Below are positions 6,785 through 49,164 of a stretch of 64,000 bases of DNA, piece by piece (the stretch's first letter is position 1; the number at the start of each line of letters is the position of its first letter). Source of the DNA: a phage. The translations under genes were made by a program, and so were the position numbers. The notes under the pieces are model-generated. The model had not been told where the DNA came from, searched no databases, and saw only the letters and a program-made list of their open reading frames with translations. The stretch lies in the sequence record PQ826431.1; one strand, written 5' to 3'.

Positions 6785-7129
6785 ATGCAAGAGAGTAAAA
6801 ATGTTCCGTTGAGTAGCTTACGTCTAATGAAGTTTTACAAAGCTTGGCTTGCTGGTGAGGTAGAAGGTCACACAACGAGTGGTTTGTGCATATGTTTGAT
6901 TAAGTATGTAGAGGGAACATACCCTGATGAACTGTTACCTCGTCTACAACAGGAGATGAAATCACAGTTTATTAGTGCAGGATTGGATTACAATTTCCCG
7001 TTTAATGAAGGTGGTTATGAGGAATACACCTTCGAACATAAAAAACATATTTGCCATAAAAACAAACATCGTATACAATGGGTGCTAGATAGAATTCAGG
7101 ATTACGAAGGAGAGAAAAATGACAAATAA
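6785..7129 (+). CDS. paralog family member 1 (GLCxCL / WVKDR motifs), 114 aa
   Basis: ORF track; RBS GAGAGGAGATTATC; shares FYKAW, TSGLC, GLDYNFPFN, QWV-DRI motifs with six other ORFs. Confidence 0.65.
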   Translation: MQESKNVPLSSLRLMKFYKAWLAGEVEGHTTSGLCICLIKYVEGTYPDELLPRLQQEMKSQFISAGLDYNFPFNEGGYEEYTFEHKKHICHKNKHRIQWVLDRIQDYEGEKNDK

Positions 7130-7487
7130 TATTCCGTTGAGTAGTGCAGCATTGCTTCGCTTCTATAAAGCATGGATTGCCAACTATCCTGCAATGAATC
7201 GCACAACGAGTGGCTTATGTGGTTGTCTGGTAGATTATGTAGATGATTTTGTTGGTGAGACAACTAGAGAAGAAGATAGAAGATGGCGGGATAGTTTGTT
7301 AGACCGTTTGAAATATGAAATGAGGAAACAATTTACATGTGCAGGGTTGGACTACAATCTTCCGTTCAATGCAGATTGCATGGATTACCTTTCAGAGTGT
7401 ATAAACTTGGCGTGTCATACCAACACGTTACGTCTTCAATGGGTGAAAGATCGCATTGAAGATGCAAATAATGCTTGCATTGAATAA
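7119..7487 (+). CDS. paralog family member 2, 122 aa
   Basis: ORF track; motifs FYKAW, TSGLCGCL, GLDYNLPFN, LQWVKDRI. Confidence 0.65.
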   Translation: MTNNIPLSSAALLRFYKAWIANYPAMNRTTSGLCGCLVDYVDDFVGETTREEDRRWRDSLLDRLKYEMRKQFTCAGLDYNLPFNADCMDYLSECINLACHTNTLRLQWVKDRIEDANNACIE

Positions 7488-11804: not shown

Positions 11805-12119
11805 ATGTCAGAAGAACTTAAAGAATTTTATCAGGCATATCATAACTGGCTATTAGCTGGTGCTCCAGATAATAATCCTTTCTGGCATGATAAAGGATTA
11901 TGTAGTTGCCTCTACCTTTGGACTGGTGGTTACGATGATCTAAATTATGAAATGCAAATGCAATTTCGAGAAGCAGGGTTGTCTGAAGAATACCCGTTTG
12001 ATGACGGAGACTGGTTTAAATATGATTTTGCACAAAGAAACGGGCTATTGCATTTGAATGCTGCCCGTATAAAATGGGTAAAAGATCATGCTACACAGGA
12101 GGATGTGCAATGCCAATAG
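11805..12119 (+). CDS. paralog family member 3, 104 aa
   Basis: ORF track; motifs FYQAYHNWL, GLCSCL, EEYPFDDG, IKWVKDH. Confidence 0.65.
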   Translation: MSEELKEFYQAYHNWLLAGAPDNNPFWHDKGLCSCLYLWTGGYDDLNYEMQMQFREAGLSEEYPFDDGDWFKYDFAQRNGLLHLNAARIKWVKDHATQEDVQCQ

Positions 12120-14786: not shown

Positions 14787-15059
14787 ATGAATAAAGATCG
14801 GTTTCTTTCTTTAGTCGCGGAAGCGCCTTTTGATGTTCTTGGGGTGAGATTATGGAAAGACAGAAACTATGGGTTAGATGTTCAAACATATTCTCTTTGG
14901 TTGGTTGGGGAGCACAGCTTAGATGAAAGCTTGTGCATGGGTAGGGATTCTCGTTCCCTTTGTTTAAAGTTTAGAAGCTTAGAACGCGCAAACAAAGAGC
15001 AAGAAAAACTAACGAGGTGGCTAAATGAAAACAAGCGCAGGGTTGATGGAGTTTTATAA
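14787..15059 (+). CDS. hypothetical protein (90 aa)
   Basis: ORF track; RBS GAAAGGTGG. Confidence 0.55.
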   Translation: MNKDRFLSLVAEAPFDVLGVRLWKDRNYGLDVQTYSLWLVGEHSLDESLCMGRDSRSLCLKFRSLERANKEQEKLTRWLNENKRRVDGVL

Positions 15060-15351
15060 AATTTATCTAGCATGGATTGATGTTGGTGCTCCTGAAGGTG
15101 AACCTTTTCGGCGAGATTGCGGTTTGTGTGCCAACTTGTTCGATTATGTGCACGCAGATGGCTACAATCTCCTTATAACAACCTTGTCAGACGAAATGCA
15201 CTCACAGTTTTACTACAAAGGGTTGAGTCAAGAACTCCCTTTCAATGAGAACTACGATGCATATGTCTTAGAATCAGATGCAGAGGTATGTCACCTGAAC
15301 GTGGACAGGATTAATTGGGTAAGAGATCGTATTGCAGAGGAGGATGAATAA
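15025..15351 (+). CDS. paralog family member 4, 108 aa
   Basis: ORF track; motifs FYKIYLAWI, GLCANL, ELPFNEN, INWVRDRI. Confidence 0.65.
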   Translation: MKTSAGLMEFYKIYLAWIDVGAPEGEPFRRDCGLCANLFDYVHADGYNLLITTLSDEMHSQFYYKGLSQELPFNENYDAYVLESDAEVCHLNVDRINWVRDRIAEEDE

Positions 15352-15580: not shown

Positions 15581-15793
15581 ATGTGGATTGTCCGTCTTAA
15601 GTATGATGGCAAGTTTCCGTGGGAGAAAGATGTTTGTGCCTGTGATTCAGCAGCACATGCCAAAGCAGCGGGTCAGGCAGTAGTTGACATGTATAACAAC
15701 ACCCCTTTTGATCCAGAAATGGCAGGTGTTACAATGAGCATGTTCACTTACTATTCTTTTGAGGTTTACTATCACGAAGGAGAGTGGAAATGA
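15581..15793 (+). CDS. hypothetical protein (70 aa)
   Basis: ORF track; RBS GGAGGAATAAGC. Confidence 0.55.
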   Translation: MWIVRLKYDGKFPWEKDVCACDSAAHAKAAGQAVVDMYNNTPFDPEMAGVTMSMFTYYSFEVYYHEGEWK

Positions 15794-16110
15794 GCGAAGA
15801 ACTATTAACATTTTACCGCACGTATTTGGCATGGTTGGAAGCTGGTGCTCCTGAAGGTGAACCGTTCACCCGTTGCACAGGTTTGTGCACGAACCTCTAT
15901 GATTTTTACGACATAGGAGAAAGCGAACGATACGAACCTGTACTGGATGAAATGCATGAGCAGTTCTACCTCAAAGGTTTGGTTATGGTGTTGCCTTTCA
16001 ACAGTAATTTTGGAAAGTACACCTTAGAAGCGGAAAAAAGCCGTTGTCATTTGAATGTGGATCGTGTGAACTGGGTAAAAGAACGTGTAGCAGAAGAAAT
16101 AATTGGTTGA
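15790..16110 (+). CDS. paralog family member 5, 106 aa
   Basis: motifs FYRTYLAWL, GLCTNL, VLPFNSN, VNWVKERV. Confidence 0.65.
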   Translation: MSEELLTFYRTYLAWLEAGAPEGEPFTRCTGLCTNLYDFYDIGESERYEPVLDEMHEQFYLKGLVMVLPFNSNFGKYTLEAEKSRCHLNVDRVNWVKERVAEEIIG

Positions 16111-16164: not shown

Positions 16165-16578
16165 ATGAAAAAGTTTATTTGCACCCGTTCCACTAACAGT
16201 GATATCCTTGTAGGTAAGGTTATCAAAGGAGACCTCTTCCATGCAAACGGTAAGAAATATATTCTGCTGAAAGATTCTTTCAACGGGGAATATCCGCGCT
16301 GCACTTTCTTCAATTACAACACTCCATTTGCTTTAGAAGGAGATTCTTGGGACTGGGCTGAACTCAATCCTTGTTGTGAGGAAGAAGAATCTATGTTCTT
16401 AGGTTTAAACGTTTACCGTGTAGATTACACCATGTGCGGAGCGGAACATTCTGTTCGCGTAGAAGCCGAATCCAAACTACAAGCACCTTTCAAGGCAGGA
16501 TTGACTTTGGGTCATTGTTTGGCAAACATTGAAGATGTTGTGATCCAAAGGGTTGTTTTAGAGAAAGAGGCTATTTGA
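16165..16578 (+). CDS. hypothetical protein (137 aa)
   Basis: ORF track; RBS AGAGAGGAGAAAATC. Confidence 0.6.
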   Translation: MKKFICTRSTNSDILVGKVIKGDLFHANGKKYILLKDSFNGEYPRCTFFNYNTPFALEGDSWDWAELNPCCEEEESMFLGLNVYRVDYTMCGAEHSVRVEAESKLQAPFKAGLTLGHCLANIEDVVIQRVVLEKEAI

Positions 16579-16631
16579 CAGAAGACGGTACAATATTTAA
16601 AATATAAAGATTAACCACAAAGGAGATAGAT

Positions 16632-16931
16632 ATGCAAGTTGAAGACCTGATCCACATTCTGAATAAAGCTAAAGAGAAGGGTGCTATCAAAGACTGGAAA
16701 CGTGAAACAAGTGAAGATTTATCTTATTGTTGCCGAGAGTTTTACATCGAAGGTATTGCTGACGATCATTATACTATCGAATGGTATATCAACTTAATGA
16801 CTCTTAAGCACGGTTCGTTTGAGGTTTGGTTTGATGACATTGATGTAAATGGTTTTCATCCTGGCTATAAAATCGCTATGCAGTTATCTTATCGTAGAGA
16901 AGTTGTAGCACATTTGGGTTTACATAACTAA
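16632..16931 (+). CDS. hypothetical protein (99 aa)
   Basis: ORF track; RBS AAAGGAGATAGAT. Confidence 0.6.
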   Translation: MQVEDLIHILNKAKEKGAIKDWKRETSEDLSYCCREFYIEGIADDHYTIEWYINLMTLKHGSFEVWFDDIDVNGFHPGYKIAMQLSYRREVVAHLGLHN

Positions 16932-16941
16932 GGAGAAAAGA

Positions 16942-17265
16942 ATGCAAGCAGTTGTTAACGAAGCTATTATGAACTTATCCTTCTTGTTAGCTGGTTTAGG
17001 AGGTGTTCTCATAGGCTTGGCTCTTATCTGGTGTATTCGTCGATTAATCGGGTACCGACAAAAAGGTGTTTCATGTTTTGTATCTTACAATTTTACAACT
17101 GCTTACAGTAATGAGGTTGGATCTGGCAATGCTCAAGCATTTTTACCAACATATCCTCCTACGGTGGAAGATATTCGAAACTTGGAAGTAGAACTTATGG
17201 GACTAGGTGATAACTATACATCTCTCGTTATTCAAAATATTTTTCGACTAAAACAGGAGTCGTGA
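16942..17265 (+). CDS. membrane protein (107 aa)
   Basis: ORF track; one TM helix; RBS AAGGAGAAAAGA. Confidence 0.55.
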   Translation: MQAVVNEAIMNLSFLLAGLGGVLIGLALIWCIRRLIGYRQKGVSCFVSYNFTTAYSNEVGSGNAQAFLPTYPPTVEDIRNLEVELMGLGDNYTSLVIQNIFRLKQES

Positions 17266-17478
17266 ATGAAGGCACATTACCCTCATCCCTTTGATCCTAA
17301 AAACAAAGCCGTAATTCTTCGTCAGTGGCAACGGGTTTGTCGTACTAAATGTCCAATCAATAGCCCACACAATGTAGACAAGGACTATCTTGGGACATTT
17401 GTTGAATACACTTACATAGACAAAAACAAGCGTAAACAACATGTCGAGGAATACTGCTTAAGAGTAGAATGGCTGTAA
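17266..17478 (+). CDS. hypothetical protein (70 aa)
   Basis: ORF track; RBS CAGGAGTCG. Confidence 0.5.
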   Translation: MKAHYPHPFDPKNKAVILRQWQRVCRTKCPINSPHNVDKDYLGTFVEYTYIDKNKRKQHVEEYCLRVEWL

Positions 17479-17490
17479 ATAATAAATACC

Positions 17491-17519
17491 TTGACAAGTG
17501 TTTATTCGTTTTGTAAAGT
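17491..17519 (+). promoter_or_regulatory. promoter (TTGACA-17-TAAAGT)
   Basis: upstream of recombinase gene. Confidence 0.45.
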
Positions 17520-17548
17520 GAGAATACAGTAATAGTTTAGGAGTGGTT

Positions 17549-18220
17549 ATGAAAAAGTTTGTTGTTTACAGTCGTCTTTCTAAACAGAAAAAAGGTGAGG
17601 CACAATATGGTATGGAGAGCCAAGAGAACGATATCCGTTACTTCTTAGACTCTGTGCCTGATGCTGAAGTTATTGGTCAATTTTCTGAATACTATTCGGG
17701 TAAGGGCGATTGGAAGCAACGTAAGGAACTGGTCAAAGCGGTTGAAATGTGTAAAGCTACCGGAGCAACTTTATTGGTAGCTAAAGTTGATCGCTTGGGT
17801 CGTAACAACGCCTCCGTAGCAACTCTTCTGGAGATGATCGATGTTAAGATAGCCATCATGCCAGACGCAGATAAAATGGTTATACAGCTTCTGTCTGTTC
17901 TGGCTGAACAAGAAGTTAGAGGTATTGCTGATCGTATTAAAAAGGGTCTTGCTGTAGCAAAAAGTAAAGGTGTTTTATTAGGCAGTGCTAATCCTAAAAC
18001 TGCCGCTGCACGTAGAAAAGGAAAAATGGAATACAATTCTGTTAAAGCAGACGCTTTTGCAGAGACATTCCGTGAACGCTTGGAGATCCTTAGAGATTTA
18101 AATACACCTTACAAAACTATTGCTGAAAAATTCAATAGTAAGAAAATAGCAACAGCACGTGGTGGTAAATGGGATGCTAAAACTGTTTCTCGTTTGTGTG
18201 CCAGACTGAACATTAAATAG
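17549..18220 (+). CDS. small serine recombinase (resolvase/invertase family), 223 aa
   Basis: N-terminal Y-S-R-L-S catalytic serine motif, LVAKVDRLGRN motif, GIADRIKKGLAVAKSKG, C-terminal HTH; RBS AGGAG. Confidence 0.7.
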   Translation: MKKFVVYSRLSKQKKGEAQYGMESQENDIRYFLDSVPDAEVIGQFSEYYSGKGDWKQRKELVKAVEMCKATGATLLVAKVDRLGRNNASVATLLEMIDVKIAIMPDADKMVIQLLSVLAEQEVRGIADRIKKGLAVAKSKGVLLGSANPKTAAARRKGKMEYNSVKADAFAETFRERLEILRDLNTPYKTIAEKFNSKKIATARGGKWDAKTVSRLCARLNIK

Positions 18221-18228
18221 GAGAGGAT

Positions 18229-18651
18229 ATGAAACAAGAAAATGAATCTGTAGATCACTTAATCATGCTGTCAGCCCTTTTTGCCGGATGGGACGTATTT
18301 TTTGAAAATTTGTTCAATTCTGCTACAGATGGTTCCGATTTTATGCGCCAGTTTAAACGACGAACTGTTGAGGACTATACCTTCTATTCAGGTCTGATTG
18401 AAAAAGGTTACGAAGATACAAATACAACACTCACCATTAAAGTTTTAGATGTGATGTTTAGTGTTATAGATGCTATCGACGAAAGTCTTCCGATCCTAGA
18501 CAATTGTAATACGAAAGCCTATGTTTACAAAATAGCTTGTGCTTATGTGTCTGCAAACAGTTGTCTTCTTTCCACCCAGATTGCCGTGAACAATCTTGCC
18601 AACTTGTTTGATGAAGGAGAAACTTTTTATGACAATCGATTTGAAGTGTAA
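18229..18651 (+). CDS. hypothetical protein (140 aa)
   Basis: ORF track; RBS TAGGAGAGG. Confidence 0.6.
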   Translation: MKQENESVDHLIMLSALFAGWDVFFENLFNSATDGSDFMRQFKRRTVEDYTFYSGLIEKGYEDTNTTLTIKVLDVMFSVIDAIDESLPILDNCNTKAYVYKIACAYVSANSCLLSTQIAVNNLANLFDEGETFYDNRFEV

Positions 18652-18994
18652 GAGGATTCTTTTAGATTTCTATAATAATTGGTTAGAACACCTCCGTCTC
18701 TTTCCAAGAGAAAGTGGTTACGCTGATGTTGGCTTATGCCGAGGTCTGCGTATGTATATAAGTGATGAATTTCGGGCAGAGCATTCTTTAGCATATTCTG
18801 TTTATGGTATGCAATTAGCCAGTTTTGAAAACGCTGGCTTAGATACAACTTTCCCATTTAACACAGCAAAATCTTTTGAGCAAGAGTGTAAGGAAAAACG
18901 TTGTATGTTTAATGAAAAACGTGTACAGTGGGTTAAGGATCGAGTTAAACAACTGGAACAAGAGTTGGATTTCTTCTATGATGAGGCAGAATAA
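18629..18994 (+). CDS. paralog family member 6, 121 aa
   Basis: track ORF trimmed to ATG after RBS AAGGAG; motifs FYNNWLEHL, GLCRGL, TFPFN, VQWVKDRV. Confidence 0.65.
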   Translation: MTIDLKCKRILLDFYNNWLEHLRLFPRESGYADVGLCRGLRMYISDEFRAEHSLAYSVYGMQLASFENAGLDTTFPFNTAKSFEQECKEKRCMFNEKRVQWVKDRVKQLEQELDFFYDEAE

Positions 18995-19266
18995 TGGATA
19001 GACAAACCTTAAAAACAATGGCAGATGCTACTAATTCCCCGTACTTTGAAAAAGTAAGTAAGTTGGTAGCTCAAGCCGCAGAGGAAGGATATTATAACAT
19101 AAACATCCACAACCCAAGTCTTATACTAGAAATGCCAAATGATAAGAAGATACAAGAAAGTATCTGCGAAGGTATTGTTAGTTACTGGCGCGAGCGTGGG
19201 TGTGGTGCAAACATGGCTTTAGACAGTGCAAACATTGTAAGATATATAAATATTTCTTGGGGGTGA
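18994..19266 (+). CDS. hypothetical protein (90 aa)
   Basis: ORF track. Confidence 0.55.
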   Translation: MDRQTLKTMADATNSPYFEKVSKLVAQAAEEGYYNINIHNPSLILEMPNDKKIQESICEGIVSYWRERGCGANMALDSANIVRYINISWG

Positions 19267-19270
19267 TTTT

Positions 19271-19882
19271 ATGATTCAATGCACTCATATCCAAATTACT
19301 TGGAGAGATGAACTTTACCATTTGGGACAATTTACTGTAGGGGAAACATACCCTATCATTAAACATAATCCTAACATCGCAAACTTTGACAGGATGGTTC
19401 TTGTTGAGGACGATCTAGGTCAAACTTATTCTTTAGATCTAAAATATCCGTTTTCTTACGGCTACGATTGGATCGTTACTTTTGAAGACGCGGAGGAAAA
19501 TAAAACAATGAACGAAAAAAATTCTTGGTATTATCGTTGTGAACTGCCGCCAGTAGGTGAAAAGGTTATCTTTGTTCCTGATTTGGAAAGATATTCTTGG
19601 GACAGTTCTTATTCTGTTCCTAAAGAAGGAACAGAAGTTGAAGTTATTGCACATCGCACAACTTCGCATGGTAACGATGTAGCAGTTGTTTTCTGGGATG
19701 ATGAAGGCGCTGCTTGTGCAGGTGGCTTTGTTGCAGGTAATTTTGAACCCCTGCCAGATCCTTTGAAGGAGGCAATTTTAGGCGTAGCTTCTTTTGGACT
19801 CTCTTACACATCTGCACAAGAGATCGTAGAAGGTATTTTAAACGGTACCGTTCCAAACGAAATTTTTAAACAGATTAAATAA
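19271..19882 (+). CDS. hypothetical protein (203 aa)
   Basis: ORF track; RBS GGGGGTGATTTT. Confidence 0.6.
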   Translation: MIQCTHIQITWRDELYHLGQFTVGETYPIIKHNPNIANFDRMVLVEDDLGQTYSLDLKYPFSYGYDWIVTFEDAEENKTMNEKNSWYYRCELPPVGEKVIFVPDLERYSWDSSYSVPKEGTEVEVIAHRTTSHGNDVAVVFWDDEGAACAGGFVAGNFEPLPDPLKEAILGVASFGLSYTSAQEIVEGILNGTVPNEIFKQIK

Positions 19883-19887
19883 TAGTT

Positions 19888-19915
19888 GCACCCCGTTCTG
19901 CGGGGTGTTATTGTA
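19888..19915 (+). terminator. weak terminator-like hairpin GCACCCCG-ttct-CGGGGTG + T-rich
   Basis: hairpin plus TTATTG. Confidence 0.35.
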
Positions 19916-19933
19916 TATGTAAAGGAGGCGCTA

Positions 19934-20272
19934 ATGTATTACACTGAAGACTACATACTGTATAACTTTTTTAAAAGCTGGTTGAAATGGGCTGAACAAG
20001 CTCCTGTCGGAGATTGTGTTTTTCCTTGGGATTCTCGTCAAGGTTTGTGTCGTTGTTTGGAAGATTGGCTTATAACCACAAACTACAATTCAGAAACTAA
20101 GAAATCTACATCAAATCGATTAAAAATGTTGTTTGAAGAAGATGGTTTAGATCCAATTTATCCTTTCGGTGAGGAAAGTTTCCACAATGGTCTTTTCCTT
20201 GGCACTCAACATTATGATAAAGATCGTGTAGATTGGGTAAAAGAAAAGGTAGCACAGTATGAATGGGGTTAA
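19934..20272 (+). CDS. paralog family member 7, 112 aa
   Basis: track ORF trimmed to ATG after RBS AAAGGAGG; motifs FKSWLKWA, GLCRCL, IYPFGEES, VDWVKEKV. Confidence 0.65.
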   Translation: MYYTEDYILYNFFKSWLKWAEQAPVGDCVFPWDSRQGLCRCLEDWLITTNYNSETKKSTSNRLKMLFEEDGLDPIYPFGEESFHNGLFLGTQHYDKDRVDWVKEKVAQYEWG

Positions 20273-24342: not shown

Positions 24343-24387
24343 CACAGAAACAATACTATAGGATAGTGATCCTATCGTAGCAATAGA

Positions 24388-24409
24388 ACCCGCTTCGGCG
24401 GGTTTTTTC
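24388..24409 (+). terminator. intrinsic terminator ACCCGC-ttcg-GCGGGT + T6
   Basis: hairpin plus TTTTTT. Confidence 0.6.
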
Positions 24410-29120: not shown

Positions 29121-29141
29121 TAAAAAACCCGCCGAAGCGGG
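29121..29141 (-). terminator. intrinsic terminator (CCCGC-UUCG-GCGGG + U6) on minus strand
   Basis: UUCG tetraloop hairpin followed by U-run in minus-strand RNA; abuts promoter. Confidence 0.6.
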
Positions 29142-29151
29142 TTATTATTTA

Positions 29152-32867: not shown

Positions 32868-33458
32868 TCAAATTATTAACGAAACCGCATGACTAAATCT
32901 TGGTTCAGATATAACCTCTGCTACAGTCACATATGTATCGTGCAGCCAAAAAGATTCTACTCTACAAACACAAATACCGTTGATAATGAAATCTACACAG
33001 GCTTTATTATTTTCGCACACTTGTTGACTATAAACAACCCCTAAAGAGTCATAAAGTGATCTCACTGTTGCTACCATTTCATCTGTTTCGTCTTCCTGTG
33101 AAACAAAGAAAACGAATACAGACAAGTTATTAGCGAAAGTATTGCTATTCTCTACTTCAACCGACTTACAAGGTAAAAAGGAGTAATATTTACCGTTAGG
33201 TATCAATTTCGCCTCAACCTGGTTAAGTATGCTTTGAGATGGTTTTGTTACATAAAAAAGATTTTCTGTTGGGTTTTCAACATTGCTCCTTACTATGCAA
33301 CGAGTGGGGTTCGAAGGATCAAAAACATGATCGAAATCGACACACACAGGTAAGTTAACAACTTTAAACTTTTTGCTAAGAATGCTTACTGCTGTAAAAA
33401 TCAAACCAGCATTTATTTTGCCAGTGAAAGTTGAACGCATAACTACTCCTCGGATCAT
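32868..33458 (-). CDS. hypothetical protein (196 aa)
   Basis: ORF track. Confidence 0.55.
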   Translation of the reverse strand: MIRGVVMRSTFTGKINAGLIFTAVSILSKKFKVVNLPVCVDFDHVFDPSNPTRCIVRSNVENPTENLFYVTKPSQSILNQVEAKLIPNGKYYSFLPCKSVEVENSNTFANNLSVFVFFVSQEDETDEMVATVRSLYDSLGVVYSQQVCENNKACVDFIINGICVCRVESFWLHDTYVTVAEVISEPRFSHAVSLII

Positions 33459-33649
33459 TCTACCAAAGAGAATTCCGCCTCTTCCAGGTAGATTACAGAC
33501 CTTGTTGCATGATATTTAACGCTCCAGAAATTACCTTCGCGCCGTAAAAGTATCTCATTCACATCAAGATTGCTTAGAAAAACCATATAACTTAAAGCTT
33601 GTTGACGCGTTGAGAATTGTTTCTCTAAAAGTTCTTCTCCGCTCTGCAT
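33455..33649 (-). CDS. hypothetical protein (64 aa)
   Basis: ORF track; RBS AGGAGGG after hairpin. Confidence 0.5.
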   Translation of the reverse strand: MQSGEELLEKQFSTRQQALSYMVFLSNLDVNEILLRREGNFWSVKYHATRSVIYLEEAEFSLVE

Positions 33650-33694
33650 AATCCCTCCTTAAAATACTCCCTCCGAAAAGGGAGTATAAGTATA

Positions 33695-33898
33695 TCACGT
33701 AGTTGTTATGTTGTCTTCTTGGATACTAGAATCCACTTCTGCAAACATATCTTCTGCACTGTAATTATTTCCAGTCCAGCGTGATAAAAGGATAGCACCA
33801 ATCTCTTTTGCATGAGATTCGGACTCTGCATAAACGTTAGTCCCAGTGTCACCTTTTTTCTTTTCATGTGCATAAATGCAGTAATAATTGTAAGCCAT
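33695..33898 (-). CDS. hypothetical protein (67 aa)
   Basis: ORF track. Confidence 0.5.
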   Translation of the reverse strand: MAYNYYCIYAHEKKKGDTGTNVYAESESHAKEIGAILLSRWTGNNYSAEDMFAEVDSSIQEDNITTT

Positions 33899-41433: not shown

Positions 41434-42087
41434 TTAGCCTCGAAATACTGTTTTTGTTTCCGCCAGGTGCCAATAGAAATCCGCCTTGTTTACAAGAGTG
41501 TTGTACACCTCTGGATAAAAATGTTCTTCCTCTTTGTAACGATCCGCTGTTTCCCTGATTGACTTAGCTTTATCTTTTAGCCAAGCGAAGTGTGCCTCTT
41601 CCTCTGTAGCGAAGTAACCTAAATGCTTTCCTTTGTGTCCAGATGATTTAGAAGAAATCTTACCATCGGATTTTCTTACAGTTACCCCTAAAAGGGATTT
41701 TCTTTCCGTCCTTTTTGAGTAACTTAACAGAGTATTCACATATGCTGGAACAAACCTACAATACGCTGGACAATAGACCGTATTACCTTCAAGTACAAGG
41801 TCTTTGTCCAGAACAAAGTTTGCTACAAAGTTTTCTTGATACCACATGTCGAAGTTTGAAAACATAAACCACTCGTCACAAACCGTCACACCTGTATACC
41901 CAGGTCTTGCTTGTTCCATTTTATAGGCTCTTTCGAACATGTTTTTCCAAGCTTTGTAAGACGGGTCTGGCTTCCCGTCTACAAATAATCGTCTTTCTAC
42001 ATCAACTACTAAGGGGATTTCTCCCCTTTCGGTAGTAACGGTCACTGCACGTTTACCTTTGAGCATTTGACCTCCTACATGCTGCAA
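41434..42087 (-). CDS. homing endonuclease-like protein (degenerate HNH-type N-domain + AP2-like DNA-binding domain) between nrdA and nrdB
   Basis: YKAW..M..RAY...GVTVCDEW..F.NFDMW pattern shared with 52446 ORF; C-terminal GYFATEEEAHFAW AP2-like motif. Confidence 0.5.
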   Translation of the reverse strand: MQHVGGQMLKGKRAVTVTTERGEIPLVVDVERRLFVDGKPDPSYKAWKNMFERAYKMEQARPGYTGVTVCDEWFMFSNFDMWYQENFVANFVLDKDLVLEGNTVYCPAYCRFVPAYVNTLLSYSKRTERKSLLGVTVRKSDGKISSKSSGHKGKHLGYFATEEEAHFAWLKDKAKSIRETADRYKEEEHFYPEVYNTLVNKADFYWHLAETKTVFRG

Positions 42088-47496: not shown

Positions 47497-47898
47497 TTAG
47501 TATTGCTCGCCACTAATACGTTCCTTAAGTTGTTTAATAGCTTCAACTGCATCTACATAAGAAGAGTTATACATGTGTTTCAGTGCCACTCGGATTAAAG
47601 GATCTTTTGTGAAGAAATCAATAAGAAGCATAGCTTGATCATGTTTAGCTGCATTTGTCATAGATGGATAATTTTCACGAACCATATACGTGTTATTTTC
47701 CATAAGGGTTCTTTCTAGTTCAATACAATGAATAGCTTTATCTAGGTTAATCTGACGTTCACCTTTGATACGTGTTGCGTATTTTGCCAATTTGCAAAAA
47801 CAAGGTGTGCCACCAACCAAATAAGCTAGTTCAATAGGTTGCATTGCCATTTTTGTGTAGTGATCACCGTCAACCTGATTATCAAAAGCATTAGACAT
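47497..47898 (-). CDS. DUF3310-like phage protein, 133 aa
   Basis: VDGDHYTK..MQPIE...KYATRIKG pattern typical of DUF3310. Confidence 0.6.
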   Translation of the reverse strand: MSNAFDNQVDGDHYTKMAMQPIELAYLVGGTPCFCKLAKYATRIKGERQINLDKAIHCIELERTLMENNTYMVRENYPSMTNAAKHDQAMLLIDFFTKDPLIRVALKHMYNSSYVDAVEAIKQLKERISGEQY

Positions 47899-48118
47899 AA
47901 TTTTCCTCCTGAATTCCTACTGCGCCGTCTTCTGGGTAGTCTGTATAATAAGCTACCCTACCTTGATAGATAACATCACCATCGCTATTGTAGATTGCTG
48001 TATCTTCTTGAATTGTTATTTCAACGTCAAGTAAATCTGGGTCTTTCTCGATGGTATAGTTCAAACCTAACATTTCAAACAGTTCGAAAATTTCGTTACC
48101 TGTTAATGTAATGCTCAT
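47891..48118 (-). CDS. hypothetical protein (75 aa)
   Basis: track ORF trimmed to ATG after RBS AAAGGAGGAAAT. Confidence 0.5.
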   Translation of the reverse strand: MSITLTGNEIFELFEMLGLNYTIEKDPDLLDVEITIQEDTAIYNSDGDVIYQGRVAYYTDYPEDGAVGIQEENYV

Positions 48119-48145
48119 ATTTCCTCCTTTTATTGTGGTTAGCAG

Positions 48146-48174
48146 AGTATACACTAATATAAAATTTTTGTCAA
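48146..48174 (-). promoter_or_regulatory. promoter on minus strand (TTGACA-17-TATACT)
   Basis: near-consensus in reverse complement. Confidence 0.6.
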
Positions 48175-48175
48175 T

Positions 48176-48198
48176 AAAAAAGGGAGCAATAAGCTCCC
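48176..48198 (-). terminator. intrinsic terminator on minus strand abutting promoter
   Basis: hairpin GGGAGC..GCTCCC + U-run. Confidence 0.6.
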
Positions 48199-48204
48199 TG
48201 ATTA

Positions 48205-49164
48205 TTAGATTCCAATAATAGTTGCTGCTCGTTTATCCTTGGATCTGGTGTTTGCTCTACTACGTGACAAACCTCCACAAGATTCACAACGAATGATATC
48301 GAAAGAACTTACCGCAGTGTGGTATTGTTTACCAGTAACAACGTGAACGTGATCACTGCCACAACGAGAACAACGGACCTTCTCATCTGGGTAATAAGCG
48401 GATAAGTTAGGATGCTGTGGAATCCACGGAAGGATTTTCATATACAAATCACGGAGTGAAACAACATCACCATCATTGTAAATCTGCATACGTTCAAAAG
48501 CATCACGATCACCTTCACAACATGCTTTCCATAAAGGGAACCCCTCGTTATCCAGTTTTTCACTTTCTGTTTCGAAATATGCTCCCATTTCTTTAAGGGA
48601 GTTGGAAGGAAGTGCAAATTGTTTCTTAGCTGCCTTCAATGTATCAACGACTACATAATTAGAAGGAGGAGCCATATCGTGATATGCAAATCGTTGGTTA
48701 ATGTATGCACGGTCAAACTTATACCCGTTGTGTGCCACAACTACATCTGCCTCGTTCAGAAGGTTCCAAAGATCTTGGCAAAGCTCCCAATCATCTGTAT
48801 GATCAATATCAAAAAGAGGATAAGAAGACAAGTTCTTACCTTCCACTTCACCTGTATACAAATCAGCAGAAGAGTAAGATAACAAATAACCCCTACGAAT
48901 TACTTGATCTGGAGAAATGAAGGCTTTGAATCGACGGAAAGTATATGCAATCTCTGGTGCAGTTTCAACATCAATAATTTTAATAACTGGTTGTTTCTTT
49001 TTAACTGGCTCTTGTCTACTTGCTCCGAATCGTGCAAGGAAATCGTTCACTGTGCTTTTTCTTGTTGGACTACCTAAAACAATTGCTGCAATATTGCGAG
49101 AAGACATACCCTCTGCACTCATACTAAGGATATCTGCTTTCTGCTCTTCTGTTAATCTGCTCAC
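48205..49164 (-). CDS. DnaQ-like DEDD 3'-5' exonuclease with N-terminal HTH and C-terminal zinc ribbon, 319 aa
   Basis: Exo I IIDVETAP, Exo II VVAHNGYKFD, Exo III YNDGD; CSRCG/CESCGG. Confidence 0.6.
   Translation of the reverse strand: MSRLTEEQKADILSMSAEGMSSRNIAAIVLGSPTRKSTVNDFLARFGASRQEPVKKKQPVIKIIDVETAPEIAYTFRRFKAFISPDQVIRRGYLLSYSSADLYTGEVEGKNLSSYPLFDIDHTDDWELCQDLWNLLNEADVVVAHNGYKFDRAYINQRFAYHDMAPPSNYVVVDTLKAAKKQFALPSNSLKEMGAYFETESEKLDNEGFPLWKACCEGDRDAFERMQIYNDGDVVSLRDLYMKILPWIPQHPNLSAYYPDEKVRCSRCGSDHVHVVTGKQYHTAVSSFDIIRCESCGGLSRSRANTRSKDKRAATIIGI

Follow-up and report, generated by a model that had tools for sequence, protein, structure and literature searches.

Why would a strictly lytic phage keep a site-specific recombinase? 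The question is raised by a 64,000-nucleotide (nt) stretch of sequence record PQ826431.1 (the window, to which all coordinates below refer unless another sequence is named), which belongs to Phapecoctavirus (Stephanstirmvirinae), i.e., to the phAPEC8-type lytic myoviruses of E. coli with genomes of about 150 kb. A sequence-only reading of the window had pointed to a 223-amino-acid (aa) serine recombinase with its own promoter, had considered the protein unlikely to be an integrase and had offered three roles for it: resolution of replication concatemers, an inversion switch elsewhere in the genome, or service as a co-opted DNA-binding regulator. We find that the feature is real and that this interpretation of it is supported in part. 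From profile searches, alignments and structure prediction, we conclude that the gene product is almost certainly an active small serine recombinase. As to its function, we tentatively favor the view that the enzyme acts like a plasmid multimer resolvase, resolving or cyclising circular phage DNA at one site per genome.

The recombinase gene and its catalytic domain

In the list of open reading frames (ORFs), the gene appears at 17543..18220 (+) with a GTG start and 225 aa. The 223-aa protein results from the ATG at 17549, where public records also start the gene; the coding sequence (CDS) of the recombinase is given here as 17549..18220 (+), stop codon included. A ribosome-binding site read from the sequence (AGGAG, 17539..17543, +) lies 5 nt ahead of this ATG. 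ORF, Pfam and PHROG evidence agreed in confirming a 223-aa serine recombinase within the noted segment 17491-18220, and the three resolvase/invertase motifs singled out earlier were all located in the protein: YSRLS at residues 7-11, LVAKVDRLGRN at 76-86 and GLAVAKSKG at 133-141. The Pfam Resolvase profile (PF00239) matched residues 5-142 well above its curated threshold (E = 5.2e-18; 66 bits against a cut-off of 23.3) and was likewise matched by all 33 homologues in our alignment, which spans 30-100% identity. Among phage protein families, the protein matched PHROG 125, "DNA invertase" (E = 2.6e-32), and more weakly PHROG 95, "integrase." Sequence matches in the PDB were to Tn3 and gamma-delta resolvases, and the best PDB match in a family profile search was Gin (E = 3e-17).

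Active-site residues were mapped by alignment to gamma-delta/Tn3 resolvase combined with the established catalytic residues of Tn3. The residues assigned in this way are Y7, R9, S11 (the nucleophile), E47, R58, D81, R82, R85, E122, D128 and R129, with Y6, R8, S10, R45, D67, R68, R71, E118 and R125 of gamma-delta/Tn3 corresponding to Y7, R9, S11, R58, D81, R82, R85, E122 and R129 of the phage protein. Across the 33 homologues, Y7, R9, S11, G21, Q25, R58, D81, R82 and R85 were invariant, and E120, E122 and R129 were nearly so; in an alignment with the ICP1, Vibrio and plasmid homologues, Y7, R9, S11, D81, R82, R85, E122 and R129 were all invariant. The catalytic serine and arginines, whose loss would have spoken against a recombinase, are thus present and unchanged.

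The AlphaFold2 model of the protein (mean pLDDT, the predicted local distance difference test score, of 89.5) begins with the catalytic alpha/beta domain, continues in a long helix (residues 109-139) and ends with four C-terminal helices. Foldseek matched the model to Sin, gamma-delta resolvase, TP901-1 integrase and Bxb1 integrase at a probability of 1.00 each; with Sin and TP901-1 integrase the match was to the catalytic domain, and the top full-length match was Bxb1 integrase. Pfam, the conserved columns, AlphaFold2 and Foldseek together place the catalytic domain and long helix E at residues 1-139 (17549..17965, +). The predicted protein therefore resembles Tn3 and gamma-delta resolvases and Sin in its catalytic fold, in the long helix E that comes next and in overall size.

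A C-terminal domain of the recombinase-like HTH type

The sequence-only reading had also assigned a C-terminal helix-turn-helix (HTH) to the protein and had named HTH_7 as the profile to look for. A helical domain of the DNA-binding type is indeed predicted, but it is not HTH_7 (PF02796), a profile matched by 0/33 family members. Of the same 33 proteins, 17 matched the N-terminal part of PF07508 ("Recombinase") and 2 matched PF20552 (HTH_62, "recombinase-like HTH"); the phage protein itself matched PF07508 at E = 0.003, over profile positions 19-48 of 102 only. In the AlphaFold2 model the C-terminal helices occupy residues 149-172, 175-183, 188-197 and 210-219, and the four-helix domain, of the recombinase-like HTH type, was placed at residues 149-219 (17993..18205, +). 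Its family motif reads IAxxLNxxGxxTxRGxxWxxxxV. The family profile aligned with residues 133-244 of the large serine recombinase YokA, in its recombinase domain. When the 78-residue domain alone was searched against 1.84 billion representative proteins, 80 proteins were retrieved; 10 of these were scanned against Pfam, and 9 matched PF07508 and PF20552, some of them with a Resolvase domain as well, while the tenth was a spurious match to a TPR protein.

By these profiles, the architecture is that of a resolvase-type catalytic domain joined to one recombinase-like HTH, which is neither the classical Tn3/Hin layout nor that of a large serine integrase. The C-terminal domain has its counterpart by homology in the first, helical part of the PF07508 domain in the large serine recombinases (Bxb1, phiC31, SPbeta YokA/SprA, LI integrase); those proteins, however, have 450-600 aa, compared with 223 aa in the phage protein, from which the remainder of the recombinase domain, the zinc ribbon and the coiled coil are all missing. 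The layout of IS607-type serine transposases, with an N-terminal MerR-like HTH followed by the catalytic domain, was not found either, the order in the phage protein being reversed (catalytic domain at residues 5-142, HTH at 149-219).

Distribution, annotation and selection

The region is 98-99% identical to 65 Phapecoctavirus phage records, with Mt1B1_P17 as the best match. The recombinase region was found in 65/65 of these records, with the protein at least 99% identical in 63 (tblastn) and the neighbors of the gene collinear in 63 of the 65. At the amino-acid level, the protein is 100% identical to phAPEC8_0049, ESCO5 and ETEC-TG (about 60 other phage records besides phAPEC8_0049). More distant homologues are those of Justusliebigvirus, among them phi92 gene 053 (57% identity; annotated "DNA invertase"), those of Klebsiella phages FKP3 and FBKp34 (52-55%), those of Vibrio and Shewanella myoviruses of 127-149 kb (35-38%) and that of ICP1 (30%).

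The gene is already known at the level of annotation, since it is annotated as a recombinase in dozens of public genomes. phAPEC8_0049 (JX561091, 2012) is a "putative site-specific recombinase," and other GenBank labels are "DNA invertase," "resolvase," "serine recombinase" and "recombinase family protein." At the sequence level the phage gene is no different from its orthologues phAPEC8_0049 and phi92 gene 053 (PHROG 125), whose names are annotation only. A search of the searchable literature for experimental work on this gene in Phapecoctavirus, phAPEC8, Stephanstirmvirinae or ICP1 returned annotation-level remarks only. One of these, in the paper on phage SKA64, mentions the recombinase and guesses at a role in keeping concatemers as single genomes (PMC10282059). 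The present analysis adds a corrected domain assignment, evidence of strong selection and of a conserved, autonomous promoter-like site, and the finding of two genomic positions, together with negative evidence against inversion and integration and a link to plasmids that favors a resolvase-like role.

Some records mislabel this locus. The recombinase CDS is called "methionine ABC transporter ATP-binding protein" in several of them (e.g., OR062529.1, 10476-11144), and the 70-aa ORF directly upstream (17266-17478 in the window) is called "putative ABC transporter ATP-binding protein" (e.g., nieznany_94; MN850598, 43368-43580). Three records with non-Escherichia host labels, MG065650 (Campylobacter phage B15), OP562383 (Acinetobacter phage ABPW7) and NC_047994 (Klebsiella phage ZCKP1), are about 96-99% identical to E. 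coli Phapecoctavirus in the regions compared; the labels may be wrong, or the reported host range may be unusually wide.

Among five Phapecoctavirus genomes, the recombinase gene showed 4-13 synonymous and 0 non-synonymous differences. The ratio of non-synonymous to synonymous substitution rates (dN/dS) was 0.18 against phiWec179 and 0.08-0.09 inside the phi92 group. Judged by these sequence comparisons, the gene is a fixed and strongly constrained component of the phAPEC8/phi92-type lytic myoviruses. A strictly lytic group thus keeps an intact, probably early-expressed site-specific recombinase under very strong purifying selection.

A promoter-like site upstream of the gene

The gene sits within a plus-strand block of small early ORFs and is preceded by an intergenic region of 70 nt. 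Within this region, 30 nt upstream of the start codon, is a sigma-70-type promoter-like site, TTGACA-17 nt-TAAAGT (17491..17519, +), that matches 10/12 consensus positions. By pattern alone such a site is at chance level (4 sites in a scan against 4.1 expected in shuffles), and similar promoter-like sites occur at several other genes of the plus-strand block. A TTGACA-like -35 hexamer was, however, read by eye (unscored) upstream of the homologous gene in 8/8 divergent phages, namely that of the window, phi92, FKP3, phiWec179, Tr1, FBKp34, Vibrio phage 501E54-1 and ICP1, and it was present in each lineage examined regardless of the adjacent genes. This conservation across lineages supports the earlier claim of an own promoter better than the pattern score does. 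It suggests that the gene is probably transcribed early by the host RNA polymerase from its own sigma-70-type promoter.

A proposed resolvase-like role on phage DNA

Outside phages, full-length homologues (35-40% identity across 95% or more of the length) were found on 110 plasmids. The three that were inspected (Marinovum, Klebsiella, Synechococcus) are replicons of 5.8-6.4 kb that are not mobilizable, and in Marinovum pMaD11 (5.8 kb) no genes other than RepA, ParA and the recombinase carry a functional annotation, a context that is suggestive of a stability (multimer-resolution) module. The plasmid homologues share the catalytic residues and the C-terminal motif with the phage protein. Phage, plasmid and prophage proteins are all of one "recombinase family protein" type, with full-length similarity, a Resolvase domain with a single PF07508/PF20552-type HTH and about 210-250 aa. 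From what is established about plasmid stability modules, a lone serine recombinase in such a replicon would be the multimer-resolution enzyme.

Resolution or cyclisation is the most plausible role for the phage enzyme because inversion, integration and an inactive regulator are each disfavored by the evidence given below and because homologues are carried by 6-kb plasmids. Of the three roles offered by the sequence-only reading, the resolution of replication concatemers thus remains the most plausible, by virtue of the homologues on plasmids of about 6 kb, from which we infer it. In the mechanism that we propose, a dimer of the recombinase would recognize a single short site in each phage genome. 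If that site were present twice in direct repeat, as would arise in a circular dimer from early theta replication or through terminal redundancy of the injected DNA, the enzyme would make staggered double-strand cuts with covalent 5'-phosphoserine links, its subunits would rotate by 180 degrees and the strands would be resealed. The outcome would be monomeric circles, or cyclised incoming DNA of the kind that Cre-lox produces for P1. A probable early promoter of the host type fits a function needed soon after injection.

Two known systems bear on this proposal. Deletion between direct repeats by Tn3 and gamma-delta resolvases and Sin is the same reaction as that proposed here; in contrast to those systems, the phage C-terminal domain is not HTH_7, the gene lies outside any transposon and no three-subsite res was found adjoining it. 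Phage P1 encodes the site-specific recombinase Cre, which is no integrase either; its roles are to cyclise DNA with terminal redundancy and to resolve dimeric circles. Cre-lox is a functional analogy only, with the same proposed cyclisation and dimer resolution, since Cre is a tyrosine recombinase of a temperate phage, whereas the phage studied here is strictly lytic and encodes a serine recombinase.

Several observations weigh against a resolvase-like role. A recombination site was not identified, the sole candidate near the gene being a 26-bp imperfect dyad, AATAAATAC-N8-GTGTTTATT (17481..17506, no strand assigned), which shares sequence with the -35 hexamer and is no more than a candidate operator or crossover site. 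By shuffling, this dyad is not significant (p of about 0.1-0.3), and neither phiWec179 nor Tr1 conserves it. Packaging from concatemers leaves a phage with no obvious need for multimer resolution, and the literature searched held no information on the genome termini of this phage group, which bears on cyclisation in particular. Action of the enzyme on phage DNA is itself presumed from its relatives, and the plasmid homologues in turn are taken as multimer-resolution enzymes from their gene context. Finally, some prophage homologues adjoin tail or baseplate genes, the classic position of an invertase.

The dyad at 17481-17506 is present in a single copy both in the window and in the whole genome of a relative, which fits a system with one site per genome and not an inversion system. 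It was also the only candidate found by the gene for a multi-subsite res, which would measure about 90-120 bp. Upstream of the plasmid homologues, a search for res-like repeats found dyads in some cases, with no motif common to them. In the Klebsiella plasmid, a dyad TATCATTTGTTTGCCG-N2-CGGCAAATTTATGATA (L021 4323-4356) stands directly upstream of the homologous recombinase gene, and in the Synechococcus plasmid TTGTAACA/TGTTACA repeats (L023 4791-4857) hold the same place; these could be recombination sites. The "repeat_region" of phage nieznany was considered as a possible terminal repeat and rejected, as it is a 44-nt internal feature.

On a broader scale, it is possible, although less likely than not, that proteins combining the catalytic domain with a single recombinase-like HTH form a distinct clade whose function is expressed early and strongly conserved in large, strictly lytic myoviruses from several unrelated groups (the phAPEC8/phi92-type coliphages, phages of Klebsiella, of Vibrio and of Shewanella, and ICP1), where it would do something so far undescribed for lytic phages. 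That function might be a Cre-like cyclisation or monomerisation for early theta replication, or a site-specific attack on the DNA of the host or of competitors. If either holds, genome cyclisation and monomerisation or action on host DNA would be an added step in the replication or takeover strategy of many coliphages and of ICP1, and the 223-aa protein would be a compact recombinase with a DNA-binding module unlike that of classical resolvases.

Possible action on foreign DNA

A target outside the phage genome is the alternative that fares best, although we consider it unlikely. In this case the recombinase would act on the host chromosome, resident prophages, satellites or plasmids, rearranging or breaking them early in the service of host takeover or counter-defence. 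Such a target would fit the probability that all lineages express the gene early from a promoter of the host type, its retention in lytic myoviruses that are unrelated and infect Escherichia, Klebsiella, Vibrio and Shewanella, and the failure to find a convincing site in the phage genome. Against it, no candidate site in host DNA came to light, although no search was aimed at one; the hosts are very diverse, yet the C-terminal domain keeps one common motif; and the closest non-phage homologues reside on small plasmids and in prophages, where they would most simply act on their own replicon. We know, moreover, of no precedent for a phage serine recombinase used against foreign DNA.

Two genomic positions of the promoter and gene

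In Phapecoctavirus, phiWec179 and Tr1 the recombinase gene occupies the early block. In Justusliebigvirus (phi92 and FKP3), the promoter and the gene lie instead between the orthologues of gp054 and gp052 (L006 2441-3169; L007 2449-3168), within a cluster of HslV, methyltransferase, HisRS-like, phosphatase and DprA genes. The window orthologues that flank this alternative position are the ORFs 33695-33898 (-) and 33455-33649 (-), and the "empty" counterpart of the Justusliebigvirus gene position is the 45-nt spacer between them (33650..33694, -), which contains a terminator-like hairpin. In FBKp34, the gene is found directly downstream of the gp054 homologue, i.e., the homologue of window ORF 33695-33898 (-). 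As two positions occur in otherwise syntenic genomes, the sequence comparison indicates that the promoter-plus-gene unit has moved at least once.

A move of this kind would also be expected of a selfish or recently relocated mobile cassette, composed of promoter and recombinase, that brings the phage little or no benefit; the two positions and the 45-nt spacer at the window's counterpart site can be cited in its favor. The position, however, is fixed within each genus and the gene occurs in all records, unlike the patchy distribution of homing endonuclease genes, and neither flanking repeats nor site duplications were seen when filled and empty junctions were compared. The unit therefore does not behave like an actively mobile selfish gene, and with very strong purifying selection acting on it as well, we regard this explanation as improbable.

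Search for inversion

That the protein could be a DNA invertase of the Gin/Cin/Hin type, flipping a phage segment and switching, for example, tail-fiber or other genes, is suggested by PHROG 125 and the many GenBank records that say "DNA invertase," by Gin as the best PDB profile match, and by two prophages in which homologues adjoin tail or baseplate genes. The bacterial chromosomal homologues in general lie in prophage-like regions near such genes; in the prophages searched for invertible tail-fiber segments, the repeats that turned up were themselves hairpins. Like Gin, Hin and Cin, the phage protein is phage-encoded and about 200 aa in size, with a catalytic domain closest to that of Gin. 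It differs from them in its other DNA-binding domain, HTH_7 being absent, in its strictly lytic phage, where those systems belong to temperate phages and Salmonella, and in that neither an invertible segment next to the gene nor inverted crossover sites nor, among about 57 genomes, any polymorphism of orientation was found; its neighbors are small early ORFs.

The genome-wide evidence comes from the complete relative ETEC-TG (149,880 bp). Inverted-repeat crossover sites had been suggested as a signature to scan for, and in a self-BLAST of this genome the inverted repeats did not exceed 32 nt; the best inverted matches (83-89% identical) linked unrelated places or were terminator hairpins. Within the window alone, an inverted-repeat search likewise gave only short imperfect matches and terminator hairpins. 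We also tiled ETEC-TG 4,886-149,880, every tail-fiber gene included, in six megablast searches against all phage records. No inversion was observed among about 57 distinct, independently deposited genomes (consensus assemblies, which would hide low-frequency isomers within a lysate), which were collinear over about 145 of 150 kb; each ordinary Phapecoctavirus record matched at one place and on one strand, with splits only at record ends. The sole rearranged records are WPEC1, 2, 4 and 6, and the junctions mapped in WPEC6 lie inside coding sequences and have no motif in common. Taken together, the lack of substantial inverted repeats in a complete relative and the collinearity of the genomes leave an inversion switch elsewhere in the genome disfavored, and an invertase role must be rated as very unlikely.

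The WPEC records (PV763039 (L018+L019), PV691511, PV659873 and PV682947) are rearranged relative to all other Phapecoctavirus genomes. Their rearrangements were considered as products of the recombinase and rejected, since the junctions mapped in WPEC6 fall inside coding sequences and show 1-9 nt of microhomology; they are probably assembly artefacts or illegitimate joins. A break at ETEC-TG 69,800-69,805 is shared by WPEC2, 4 and 6; it lies a short way upstream of the genes for the Rz-like spanin and the terminase, and this common break point might be a physical genome end. Separately, two places in the window, 24387-24408 and 29122-29143, carry the same 22-nt terminator hairpin, AACCCGCTTCGGCGGGTTTTTT, in opposite orientations, one copy ending the plus-strand early block, and a near-identical third copy of it is found elsewhere in ETEC-TG, outside the window.

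Improbable roles in regulation and integration

There is very little to recommend either a DNA-binding regulator that no longer recombines, for which the dyad overlapping the gene's own -35 hexamer would suit autoregulation, or an integrase of a hidden temperate lifestyle, for which the weaker PHROG 95 match could be cited: a pure regulator would not need the nucleophile serine, catalytic arginines and acidic residues that are invariant over 30-100% identity, and an integrase is hard to reconcile with a 223-aa protein without the zinc ribbon and coiled coil of serine integrases. The invariance of the catalytic residues makes a non-catalytic regulator unlikely, and the complete catalytic set, with its 0 non-synonymous against 4-13 synonymous differences, thereby disfavors the co-opted regulator that had been put forward, insofar as it was meant to be non-catalytic. 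The view that the protein is no integrase gained support, as a megablast search of the 3-kb region 16500-19500 against 5,426 complete E. coli genomes found no match, with neither att sites nor lysogens turning up, and the SKA64 paper likewise reports the absence of prophage matches (PMC10282059). Recombinase genes are often taken as a warning flag in candidates for phage therapy (PMC10282059); in phages of the present group that are proposed for therapy, this recombinase gene does not signal lysogeny.

Other features of the window

An HNH endonuclease ORF (41434-42087, -; ETEC-TG 47593-48249) is located between the genes for the small and large subunits of ribonucleotide reductase. It is absent from WPEC6, which has a gap at ETEC-TG 47587-48291, and such presence/absence polymorphism is typical of homing endonuclease genes. 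The early region also contains repeat units in which a TTGAC(A/C) promoter-like site precedes a hairpin rich in G+C (GGGCGGCAATGGTGCCGC); two are found in the window at 1175-1195 and 2047-2067, and the first about 11 kb of ETEC-TG (L003 1-11500) holds many direct copies. Lastly, seven paralogous small ORFs of about 100-130 aa lie on both sides of the recombinase gene in the early block, all on the plus strand (6785-7129, 7119-7487, 11805-12119, 15025-15351, 15784-16110, 18596-18994 and 19886-20272), and at least three of the seven have a C-terminal RVxWVKxRV-like motif in common.

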